Assembly (NCBI RefSeq): GCF_046105845.1
Contig: NZ_CP151004.1
Length of the DNA: 64,000 nucleotides
Strand: one strand, 5' to 3'
DNA from: Escherichia coli
GTDB taxonomy: Bacteria > Pseudomonadota > Gammaproteobacteria > Enterobacterales > Enterobacteriaceae
Each line of letters begins with the position of its first letter. The first letter of the stretch is position 1. Positions 15,001 through 18,000 of this stretch are shown here, piece by piece. Position numbers: made by a program.

Positions 15001-18000
15001 AGTGATATTTTTGTGATGTTTTAGATGTGTAATAATGAACCAGGTTAAAGTGTATTTAAAAATGTGTTGTATTGGCGACTGAAATCTGCCCTTTAAAAGG
15101 GGGGATAGCACTGAGACAAAGAGGCATTGCTTCTCCGATAAAATGTCAGAGAAGCATGATTGCGTGGTGATTGTCGATTGATGACTTACTGACGGATCCG
15201 TCATCATTCTCAAAGCATTAGTTAAGTTATTTGTGATTTTTAAGGATTATCCTATCTATGATTTTCTACTCAGAAGGATAAGGCACTCACAATGCTCCTT
15301 ATAGTTTACTGCTGGCATCTATTTAAAATAGCATTTGAGTCAAATAGCCCATCAAGATAGCCATACCTAAGATAACCGTCAGGAATGCAGCTATCATCGG
15401 CATTCTGAACATTGATTTAAGTAATATCACTTCCGTCAGGCTTGCTCCGGCACTGCCGATGATTAATGCCATTAATGCTCCCAGCCCCATTCCTTTTGTC
15501 ATCAGAACAGATGCCAGAGGGATAACCGCCTCTGCCCGGATATACAGCGGAATTCCGACAACGGCGCTCAATGGGATGGCGAAGGGATTATCTGCCCCTG
15601 CATGAGCGGCAATCCACTCTGAGGGAATAAAGCCATAAATAAAAGAGCCTATTAATACCCCTAACAAAAGATATGGCAGTACATCTTTAAACTGTTGCAA
15701 CGCATCTTTGGTGGCTAGTTTTATGGGATTAATACTTACCACAGCTTTGGTACTGCAACAGTTTACTACAGGTTTCTCAATGGCTTTAGCCGCTGGACTA
15801 CAGCAACTCACTTTTATTGGCGTATATGTCGTCCCCGGCGAAGTTTTGGCTGGAGCACAACAATTTGCTGATGAGCTTTTACTGGCAATGATATGACGTT
15901 CAAATCCCAGGGAATCCAGGATAATACTGGCAAGTACGGAGACGCCGGCGGCGATAATCGCGTACAACAAGGTAACTTTCCAGCCAAAGGTCACCCACAT
16001 TAACCCGACGATAATGGGATTAAGTAATGGGGAAACAAATAAAAAAGTGAGGGTCGGACCAAACCCGGCTTTCGCTGATAACAATCCACGTAACATGGGG
16101 ATTGTCGAGCAACTACAGAACGGGGTAACGGCTCCCAACAGAGCAGCCAGGAGATAACCTCTCCCTTTTCTGGCCCCCATCATCTGCTGGATTTTATGGT
16201 CTGGCACCTTTTGTCTTATCAGGCTGACACCGGCACTAATCACTATAAACAGCAAAGAAAGCTCGACGGCGAGAAACACAAACATCTCTGCGGCATCTTG
16301 CAGCATCGCAAGCCAACTACTCATACGTAACCTCATTGAATAAATCTATATTTCCAGAATAATCGAAATGAAATTCAGATCAAGATATTTCTGGTATTAT
16401 CGAAATATCAACCAGACAAAGGGGGTGTCATATGCAGTTGGAAGAAGTTGCTAAAGCGCTGAAAGAGCTAGGTCACCCGACCCGTTTGTTCATATTCAAA
16501 CACCTGGTCAAAGCGGGGGAACAAGGTTTGCCGGTCGGTGAGTTGCAAAAGCAGCTTGGGATACCCGGCTCTACACTCAGTCACCATATTTCAGCACTGG
16601 TATCGGTAGGGCTGGTCAAACAAAACCGTGAGAGTCGGACGCTGATGTGTGTTTCGCAATACGCAATGCTGGAAGCGATAATTGAATTCTTACGCGAGGA
16701 GTGCTGCGTAAATAGCAAAATTGCCTGATGCGCTACGCGCTACAGATTTCATGCCATATATTGAATTTGCACGGTTTTGTAGGTCGGATAAGACGCGTTA
16801 GCGTCGCATCCGACATAAACGAAGCGCACTTTACCAACTATCGGCAGTGGATATCGCCGCTTTATTTCAGGCGTTTACCCGCTTCATCAACCACTTTCTC
16901 GCCATCTTCCTTGGTGAACGCGCCTTGTTGCGCATTTGGCAGAATTTCCAGCACCACTTCTGAAGGGCGGCACAGGCGAGTTCCCAGCGGCGTCACCACA
17001 ATCGGGCGATTAATCAGAATCGGGTGCTGAAGCATAAAGTCGATTAACTGATGGTCAGTAAATTTATCTTCTGCAAGGCCCAGTTCCTCATACGGCTCGA
17101 CGTTTTTACGCAGCAGCGCGCGTACGGAAATCCCCATATCGGCAATGAGTTTGACCAGCTCATCGCGCGTTGGCGGTGTTTCCAGATAATAGATAATGGT
17201 CGGTTCTGTACCGCTGTTGCGGATCATCTCCAGCGTGTTACGCGACGTGCCGCAGGCCGGGTTGTGATAAATGGTAATGTTGCTCATATCAATATCTCAT
17301 TACAAAGTGAAAGAGAGACGTAGCGCCAGCGCAGCCAGCGTCACAAAAAGCACCGGCAGGGTCATGATAATTCCTGTACGGAAGTAATATCCCCAGCTGA
17401 TAGTCATATTCTTCTGCGAAAGTACGTGCAGCCAGAGTAGCGTAGCCAGGCTACCAATTGGGGTAATTTTCGGTCCCAAATCGCAGCCAATCACGTTGGC
17501 ATAAATCATCGCTTCTTTGATAACGCCAGATGCCGTGCTGCCATCAATGGACAACGCGCCAACCAGTACCGTCGGCATATTGTTCATAATAGAAGAGAGG
17601 AAGGCGGTGAGGAATCCGGTGCCGAGCGTCGCGGCCCACAGGCCGTTTTCCGCCAGCACGTTGAGTACGCCAGAAAGATATTCCGTTAGTCCGGCATTGC
17701 GCAGGCCATAAACCACCAGATACATGCCGAGCGAGAAGATGACAATCTGCCAGGGCGCACCGCGTAGCACCTTACCCGTATTAATTGCATGACCGCGTTT
17801 AGCGACGGCAAATAATATCAGCGCGCCCACTGCCGCAATGGCGCTGACCGGAATGCCGAGCGGTTCCAGGACGAAAAATCCCACCAGCAGAAACAGTAAA
17901 ACAACCCAGCCAGTTTTGAAGGTTGCAGGATCTTTAATCGCTTCTGCGGGAGATTTCAGCAGCGCCATATCGTAGTTCTGCGGAATATCTTTGCGGAAAT

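Follow-up and report, generated by a model that had tools for sequence, protein, structure and literature searches.

A 64,000-nucleotide stretch of an Escherichia coli chromosome (contig NZ_CP151004.1 of assembly GCF_046105845.1, referred to below as the window) was found to encode an ArsP-family permease whose central loop carries three vicinal cysteine pairs (Cys-Cys or CC dyads). Comparison with related permeases showed that the loop keeps its cysteines while the rest of its sequence drifts. The reading given somewhat better than even weight is that the loop would serve as an integral arm, linking the two inverted repeats of an efflux permease with a predicted elevator-type fold similar to that of DASS and ArsB transporters, whose thiolates capture trivalent (organo)arsenicals and pass them on. 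Coordinates refer to the whole window, and residue numbers to an open reading frame (ORF) of 337 aa unless the 333-aa numbering is stated.

Permease gene and cysteine pairs

Translation of the minus strand at 15323-16336 gave the 337-aa ORF. The second ATG (16324) is the likelier start than the in-frame ATG at 16336, because GAGG is located 7 nt upstream of it and the RefSeq start is at the same position, which gives a protein of 333 aa. RefSeq labels the product as 'permease' only, with no function assigned. The features of the gene are as follows.

15323..16324, minus strand: coding sequence of the PF03773 (ArsP_1) permease, 333 aa; ATG 16336 would give 337 aa
16106..16126, minus strand: TPFCSCS motif (C74, C76), residues 71-77, invariant across the family
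15710..15910, minus strand: central loop joining the two structural repeats, residues 139-205 (333-aa numbering), predicted cytoplasmic
15734..15877, minus strand: Cys-dyad segment predicted to be disordered, residues 150-197 (333-aa numbering), predicted local distance difference test score (pLDDT) <50
15857..15862, minus strand: CC dyad 1, C159-C160 (155/156 in 333-aa numbering), TGTTGT
15800..15805, minus strand: CC dyad 2, C178-C179 (174/175 in 333-aa numbering), TGCTGT
15755..15760, minus strand: CC dyad 3, C193-C194 (189/190 in 333-aa numbering), TGTTGC

The peptide SSSANCCAPAKTSPGTTYTPIKVSCCSPAAKAIEKPVVNCCSTK corresponds to residues 154-197 (window 15748-15877, minus strand). Translation reproduced it exactly as quoted in the preliminary description and confirmed the three CC dyads reported there in addition to the membrane CSC motif. 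Outside the loop the permease has only two cysteines, C74 and C76, both in TPFCSCS. With an assumed Cys frequency of 1.16% for E. coli, the Poisson chance of at least three CC dyads in 44 residues was approximately 3e-8, and six cysteines in 44 residues were all paired in 336 of 200,000 shuffles (0.17%). Tandem Repeats Finder reported no tandem repeat in the loop DNA, hence the dyads did not arise by a recent tandem duplication at the DNA level.

The description of the protein as an ArsP-like permease was correct at the family level. Pfam PF03773 (ArsP_1) matched residues 13-334 with an E value of 5.8e-53 and 180.4 bits (cut-off 32.3), covering profile positions 3-293 of 294. The membrane motif is of the C(S/T)C form (tPF-CSC, 'cluster 2' type), and TPFCSCS was invariant in both homologue alignments; a conserved PFCSC motif has been described for the ArsP family (PMC4435449). 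The gene context of the family was also present in the window, with a divergent ArsR-family gene and an adjacent arsRBC operon. Two narrower assignments were rejected. The best NCBIfam match was the SO_0444 Cu/Zn efflux equivalog (NF033936), which scored 109.2 bits against a cut-off of 300, and ten homologues, Shewanella included, scored 91-136 bits against the same model. The SaoE equivalog (NF040736) scored 86.5 bits against a cut-off of 325. With scores so far under the cut-offs, the permease belongs to neither equivalog family. The MerR/ZntR-type regulator found in the operon of SO_0444 was likewise missing from this module, which has an ArsR/SmtB-type regulator instead.

Conservation of the loop across relatives

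The best 120 database matches yielded 111 close homologues whose loop bounds could be set, from Escherichia, Salmonella, Citrobacter, Enterobacter, Proteus and Aeromonas. Their transmembrane core was nearly invariant; the central loop was 59-107 aa long, hard to align, and carried one to four CC dyads in every homologue (111/111). A species scan with one genome per species added 80 further loci at approximately 50% identity (Vibrio, Shewanella, Photobacterium and others). Among 85 proteobacterial homologues, all loops had at least one Cys and 83 had at least two, with at least one CC dyad in 60 and at least three in 20. Cys accounted for 8.4% of the loop residues in these 85 homologues compared to 0.76% elsewhere, an approximately eleven-fold difference. 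Altogether 124 loop dyads were observed, 3.7 times the 33.9±5.0 obtained when each loop's own composition was shuffled in 2000 runs (maximum 52, n=85), and Ser directly preceded 82 of them (S-CC context). The shortest loops (34 aa) had a GCxxxCG motif in place of dyads.

In the wider family, represented by 73 full-length sequences at 31-60% identity, at least two loop cysteines were present in 40 and at least one dyad in 22, with up to seven dyads in one protein. The loop was absent or Cys-free in 29 of the 73, and one member (P0257) had a His-rich loop with 9 His. Within E. coli genomes the loop DNA (window 15690-15910) was the most polymorphic part of the permease gene, as 518 E. coli records matched the loop at 90-95% identity compared to 11 for the whole 1.6 kb. 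A loop allele with a 12-nt in-frame insertion, APAKASAKTLPG, was found for example in an O104:H4 strain. All major E. coli protein clusters kept the three dyads.

Overall, the pattern in the loop is a conserved cysteine composition, S-CC above all, in an otherwise freely drifting segment, and the comparison suggests that the loop cysteines are under selection. A neutral low-complexity linker, with cysteines as a by-product of composition or repeat expansion, would suit a loop that is hypervariable in length and sequence, is the most polymorphic gene part in E. coli and is absent or Cys-free in many diverse family members. The Cys enrichment, the excess of dyads over the composition expectation and the preference for S-CC argue against it, as do the persistence of the Cys and dyad features across genera while flanking residues turn over and the lack of a DNA-level tandem repeat that could make dyads passively. 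This explanation was considered very improbable.

The preliminary description had named a loop that is absent or Cys-free in orthologues as the result that would speak against its proposal. Such loops were confined to distant members, and the Cys-richness was kept in all of the close and proteobacterial homologues. In addition, at least some of the distant members with Cys-free loops encode the CC element as a separate gene.

Tandem PF03773 permease genes were observed in two metagenome-assembled genomes (L013 2924-5113 and L015 2168-4211), the downstream copy in each having a very Cys-rich loop with CCCC and GCGC motifs. A literature search found no description of a Cys-dyad central loop for ArsP, so far as the searchable literature goes, and an expandable Cys-dyad loop on an ArsP-family permease appears to be undescribed there.

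CC mini-proteins beside permeases with Cys-free loops

Homologues from Corynebacterium, Bacillus/Priestia and Staphylococcus with short Cys-free loops had a tiny gene approximately 15-30 nt downstream. The encoded mini-proteins are 42-49 aa long with the form MGxKD..(S/D)CC(S/N)(V/I)EI.., frequently with another CC close to the C-terminus, and examples include MGIKDVLKKLKPQEQSCCSVEIEEKKEKNEKEQLDNNNCCNN, MGLLSIFKRDKKEKDCCNIEIIEIKDEQSEKESCCSKNTEKEDKNS and MGFKDLFHKKNTNSDCCSVEIV… (start only). Their genes were located as follows.

L098 4001-4129: mini-protein gene
L095 3399-3527: mini-protein gene
L006 4886-5026: mini-protein gene
L005 4916-5053: mini-protein gene

The Staphylococcus gene is set in an arsR-arsP-CC / arsD-arsA cluster. 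One Staphylococcus mini-protein was found in 2081 blocks of the collection and directly followed arsR-arsP in all four places shown. A profile built from three mini-proteins retrieved 144 clusters, all of them unnamed or misnamed (some as 'alcohol dehydrogenase'), and no Pfam or NCBIfam model matched the CC mini-proteins. Neither a signal peptide nor a transmembrane segment was seen in their sequences, and they were therefore taken as cytoplasmic. Another homologue had a 73-aa CC-bearing ORF upstream together with PadR, MarR or ArsR regulators carrying CC dyads. The likeness between loop and mini-protein is of motif only, an analogy and not homology. That a CC element recurs, here as part of the permease and there as a separate protein, speaks for dyads acting with the permease, on its cytoplasmic side.

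Predicted structure and membrane side

AlphaFold2 on a 21-sequence alignment produced a model with a mean pLDDT of 77 and a predicted template modelling (pTM) score of 0.74. Residues 150-197 (333-aa numbering) had a pLDDT <50 and no secondary structure, and the core had values of 77-94. Each half of the permease was modelled with a long helix at either end and, between them, two pairs of short broken helices. The CSC motif was at the break in the first short-helix pair, and TPFCSCS, placed between the two short helices, would form the tip of a re-entrant hairpin. The model was similar to solved Ion-transporter-superfamily-like folds (DASS/INDY, ArsB and AbgT), relatives which have re-entrant hairpins and a cytoplasmic inter-repeat linker. 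Among the 85 homologues, Lys and Arg were concentrated in loops 1, 2 and 7 and in both central-loop flanks, and the N-terminus and loop 5 were net acidic.

Hairpins were assigned from helix lengths, charge bias and fold analogy. The arrangement that fits the first half is an outside N-terminus, TM1, a hairpin that carries CSC at its tip and enters from the cytoplasmic side, a broken transmembrane (TM) helix and TM4. For the second half it is the central loop inside, TM5, a hairpin from the outside, a broken TM helix, TM8 and an outside C-terminus. The central loop would thus face the cytoplasm. A simple count of eight TM helices with the N-terminus outside would place the central loop in the periplasm, where its cysteines would form disulfides or catch exported or external metal(loid), giving the loop a protective function or one on the release side. 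Eight helices are commonly given for ArsP, reportedly also by Chen et al. in 2015. However, with this topology the Lys/Arg-rich central-loop flanks and loop 2 would lie in the periplasm and the acidic loop 5 in the cytoplasm. It would also depart from the fold relatives, in which hairpins are re-entrant and the linker between the repeats is cytoplasmic. Furthermore, no signal peptide was seen in the analogous mini-proteins, and vicinal disulfides are strained and uncommon. A periplasmic loop was considered improbable, and it is disfavoured together with the functionless linker.

The model also bears on a regulatory or gating role for the loop, in which dyad binding would free an autoinhibitory plug or alter the transport rate. 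A disordered tether between the repeats of an elevator-like fold could restrain domain movement, and a dyad number from 0 to 7 suits tuning more than an obligatory step. Gating roles have been proposed for the His-rich loops of some Zn transporters. However, transcription is already controlled by a dedicated repressor and operators, and the stand-alone CC mini-proteins of Gram-positive bacteria cannot be an intramolecular plug. Gating was given a low probability, with comparative data that are compatible with capture and gating alike and cannot separate the two.

Partner regulator and operators

The regulatory features adjacent to the permease gene are as follows.

16432..16728, plus strand: ArsR/SmtB-family regulator, 98 aa, divergent; wing Cys73 at 16648-16650 and ECC (C91-C92) at 16702-16707
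16351..16368, no strand assigned: operator-like palindrome 1, TTTCCAGAATAATCGAAA, 27 nt from the permease ATG
16388..16405, no strand assigned: operator-like palindrome 2, TTTCTGGTATTATCGAAA, 27 nt from the regulator ATG

RefSeq labels the regulator as a 'helix-turn-helix' or ArsR/SmtB-family transcription factor. Its best PDB match with phmmer was AfArsR of Acidithiobacillus ferrooxidans (6J05, E 4.7e-10), and C91-C92 ('eecc') aligned with 'encc', which is Cys95-Cys96 of AfArsR. The As(III) site of AfArsR consists of Cys95, Cys96 and Cys102, while in SpArsR of Shewanella putrefaciens 200 the equivalent pair, Cys101/Cys102, alone forms the site for methylarsenite, MAs(III) (PMC13236881). For 65 of 87 loci an ArsR-like gene was found no more than 2.5 kb from the permease, mostly divergent and approximately 100 bp off. 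All 62 strongly matching adjacent regulators had [D/E/Q]CC near the C-terminus as well as a wing cysteine (RxLxC), which is Cys73 in the window regulator, and 21 had an extra Cys 3-6 residues past the CC. In the window regulator no Cys follows the CC, which agrees with SpArsR, yet the wing Cys73 is present. The regulator had been considered as a two-Cys, MAs(III)-selective sensor; this was dropped when the invariant wing cysteine was found, and because of this third invariant cysteine no MAs(III) selectivity is claimed for it.

Of the 87 loci, 74 had an 18-bp palindrome, TTTC-N10-GAAA with the consensus TTTCGATAATTATCGAAA, no more than 260 nt upstream of the permease, and 37 of these 74 had it twice; the background frequency in other pieces of this length was 1.07%. 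When the whole window was scanned with position weights, only the two intergenic sites (24.9 and 23.9 bits) stood out, with the next best at 12.7 bits. As no third high-scoring site was found in the window, the regulator probably does not control arsRBC.

A gene for an extracytoplasmic function (ECF)-type sigma-70 factor overlapped the 3' end of the ArsR-like gene at L017 (2936-3505) and at approximately nine other, mainly Vibrio, loci, and the overlap suggests co-transcription. At L007 a sigma factor precedes a distant permease and thioredoxin pair.

Arsenic gene context and substrate

A Salmonella island (L090) contained arsRDABC, arsH, the regulator and a 75%-identical permease (P0044) with four dyads. 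The arsH product scored 405 bits with TIGR02690 (cut-off 292), its gene had the same orientation as the regulator gene, and the Salmonella regulator differed from the window regulator by only a few residues. The E. coli window was syntenic with this island but without the approximately 975-bp arsH segment (window 16721-16860 compared to L090 4631-5605), and a tblastn search of the window found no arsH remnant. An Enterobacter plasmid had the order arsA-arsB-arsC-arsC-phosphatase-permease-arsR(…DECC)-arsH, with a permease of 47% identity and a Cys-rich loop. Gram-positive homologues were located in arsR-arsP / arsD-arsA clusters in Staphylococcus and in arsR-arsP-arsO clusters in Corynebacterium. 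ArsH carries the annotation of arsenical resistance protein and is described as oxidising trivalent organoarsenicals, and ArsP is described as an exporter of MAs(III) and reduced roxarsone, Rox(III), and not of As(III) (PMC6205960, PMC12607644). The substrate of the permease, judged from these gene neighbourhoods, would most likely be a trivalent arsenical.

Two observations weigh against an arsenical substrate. Most of the 80 genomic loci, mainly from marine gammaproteobacteria, had no ars neighbours, and the family includes the Cu/Zn exporter SO_0444, which is under MerR-type control (PMC3219624). Among 150 flanking genes at the 80 loci no conserved partner besides the regulator was found, with ECF sigma factors in 10 loci and few occurrences of ars genes. 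Beyond Enterobacteriaceae and Gram-positive bacteria, this survey therefore did not confirm arsenic operons as the general setting of the module.

The same structure and loop chemistry would also suit a soft metal cation, for example Cu(I), Zn(II), Cd(II) or Hg(II), and the module would then be a metal efflux module. Growth under Zn and Cu stress depends on SO_0444 (PMC3219624), whose family was the best NCBIfam match (109 bits). The scarcity of ars neighbours at most of the 80 loci and the His-rich loop of P0257 also agree with a metal substrate, and CC and CxxxC motifs bind Hg, Cd and Cu too. However, all scores were far under the SO_0444 cut-off, and the MerR/ZntR-type control of SO_0444 is replaced here by an ArsR-type repressor whose CC aligned with the arsenite ligands of AfArsR. 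In addition, arsH adjoins the module in two separate clades, and the Gram-positive CC mini-protein is located in arsR-arsP / arsD-arsA clusters. A soft metal substrate was judged unlikely.

Proposed role of the loop

The preliminary description had proposed that the loop may be a soft-metal or As(III) capture or regulatory site. Comparative sequence analysis supported such a site through the retention of Cys and CC, the predicted cytoplasmic disorder, the repressor with its putative CC sensing site, the arsH and arsRDABC contexts, and the CC mini-proteins where loop cysteines are lacking. In this capture model, inference covers the membrane topology and the nature of the substrate as well as its binding and transfer. 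Each Cys-Cys dyad would offer two adjacent thiolates, as would the ECC of the repressor and the CSC of the membrane domain, which is what a two-coordinate R-As(III) species needs. The dyads would bind the thiophilic substrate in the cytoplasm, most probably a trivalent arsenical and notably a two-coordinate organoarsenical such as methylarsenite or reduced roxarsone, and would enrich it locally where the transporter opens to the inside. Exchange of thiol ligands would then pass it to Cys74/Cys76 at the tip of the hairpin for export, and variation in dyad number would tune capacity. In this role the loop would act like an ArsD metallochaperone incorporated into the permease. The repressor would bind the two palindromic operators and be released once its own CC site is occupied, which would make the module self-regulating.

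A broader proposal is put forward only tentatively. CC-dyad peptides may be an unrecognised modular partner of ArsP-family permeases, either as an expandable fused loop in Proteobacteria or as a stand-alone protein of 42-49 aa in Staphylococcus, Bacillus and Corynebacterium, with a relay from the sensor CC through the accessory CC to the CSC motif giving a preference for two-coordinate trivalent organoarsenicals. As the E. coli/Salmonella version is on many conjugative plasmids, with many of the sampled records from food animals, it could then be an overlooked determinant of organoarsenical resistance that arsenical feed additives co-select with antibiotic resistance.

If the capture arm is correct, it would give a function to an accessory module that is common in E. 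coli and Salmonella. It would also suggest a straightforward chemical reason why ArsP transporters select organoarsenicals, with two-thiolate sites at every step, and point to an unannotated CC mini-protein family in staphylococcal ars clusters. The chemistry itself is expected, but the mini-protein family opens a fresh line and the module is widespread, mobile and uncharacterised. The six cysteines, the 48-residue segment and the two operators provide experimental handles.

Locus and genomic distribution

The gene order in this part of the chromosome was an slp-like ORF, a yhiS-like ORF, the permease, the divergent regulator and arsC-arsB-arsR. The flanking features are as follows.

12709-13308: slp-matching ORF, on the other side of the permease from arsRBC, assigned from its N-terminal sequence and a homologous annotated locus
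16862..18997, minus strand: chromosomal arsR-arsB-arsC operon, adjacent

A 407-aa ORF at 13519-14742, between the slp-like ORF and the permease, had no Pfam or NCBIfam match. In the closest RefSeq genome its counterpart carries the annotation of a frameshifted hypothetical protein, and the ORF is probably a yhiS homologue. The region was present at ≥80% coverage in 2221 of 5426 complete E. coli genomes (approximately 40%). Homologues were found on approximately 1000 plasmid records, 639 of them conjugative, and the plasmids examined carried a self-contained regulator-permease pair with insertion sequence (IS) elements on its flanks. Many of the module-bearing plasmid records came from E. coli and Salmonella isolated from chickens, turkeys or pigs, and a Corynebacterium plasmid (L005) was from poultry litter. 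With sampling bias uncontrolled, these sources would fit selection by arsenical feed additives.

E. coli strain E69, the sole E. coli genome in the species-level scan, had a 75%-identical regulator-permease pair (L009 4001-4996) at a different chromosomal site adjoining a DUF2776 gene, and this copy also had three CC dyads. A nearly identical pair with the loop YVRRTATQESSGCSSSASPC…SECC… was found on a Salmonella IncHI2 plasmid (L004 6563-9313) and at L063, L064, L077, L078 and L087, the hosts besides Salmonella being Salinicola, Nitrincola, Pseudomonas, Sphingopyxis and Acinetobacter. An annotated ISL3-family transposase was located 13 nt downstream of the pair in L004, and a 425-aa ORF was in the same position in L087. 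These observations suggest that this pair spread recently and horizontally as transposon cargo.

Comparison with known systems

One of the closest known systems is ArsP of Campylobacter jejuni (TC 2.A.119; PF03773), an efflux permease for MAs(III) and Rox(III), which belongs to the same Pfam family and has the invariant PFCSC motif. According to Chen et al. in 2015, both PFCSC cysteines of C. jejuni ArsP are reportedly required for MAs(III) transport. ArsR-type control and ars gene context are common to the ArsP family and this module. No Cys-dyad central loop was found described for ArsP in the searchable papers, and the E. coli protein is uncharacterised.

The regulator shares a vicinal CC site, by alignment, with SpArsR and AfArsR. 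Chen, Nadar and Rosen are said to have reported in 2017 that SpArsR orthologues are paired with arsH and a permease, and the Salmonella and Enterobacter versions of the module likewise pair a regulator, a permease and arsH, whereas the E. coli window is without arsH. Compared to SpArsR and AfArsR, the regulators here add the invariant wing Cys (62/62) and, in 21 of the 62, a further Cys after the CC. Owing to these extra cysteines, selectivity between As(III) and MAs(III) is not readable from the sequence.

ArsD also has three vicinal Cys pairs (Cys12-13, 112-113 and 119-120), each of which may bind metalloid, and it passes As(III) on to the pump component ArsA (PMC12607644). The loop resembles it in having three such pairs beside an arsenical transporter. 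However, ArsD is a soluble protein with a fold of its own and works for the ArsA ATPase, and the element here is a predicted disordered loop of a secondary permease, with no sequence homology between the two.

SaoE is accompanied by CC/CU motifs and a 'CC-COOH' small protein, SaoC (Haft, bioRxiv 10.1101/2022.07.06.499078). SO_0444 differs from the present permease in having a ZntR-like MerR regulator (PMC3219624) and not an ArsR-type repressor. Both SO_0444 and SaoE share the Pfam family and the CSC motif of the permease.

Other metal transport systems have ligand-rich segments of a comparable kind, such as the His-rich loops of CDF and ZIP transporters, the cytoplasmic Cys pair of MerT and the C-terminal CC of MerA. 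By analogy, the concept would be the same, a flexible cytoplasmic ligand-rich segment that takes the ion and hands it to a membrane site. These systems are of other folds and families, whereas the element here is a repeated S-CC dyad whose copy number shifts between close relatives.

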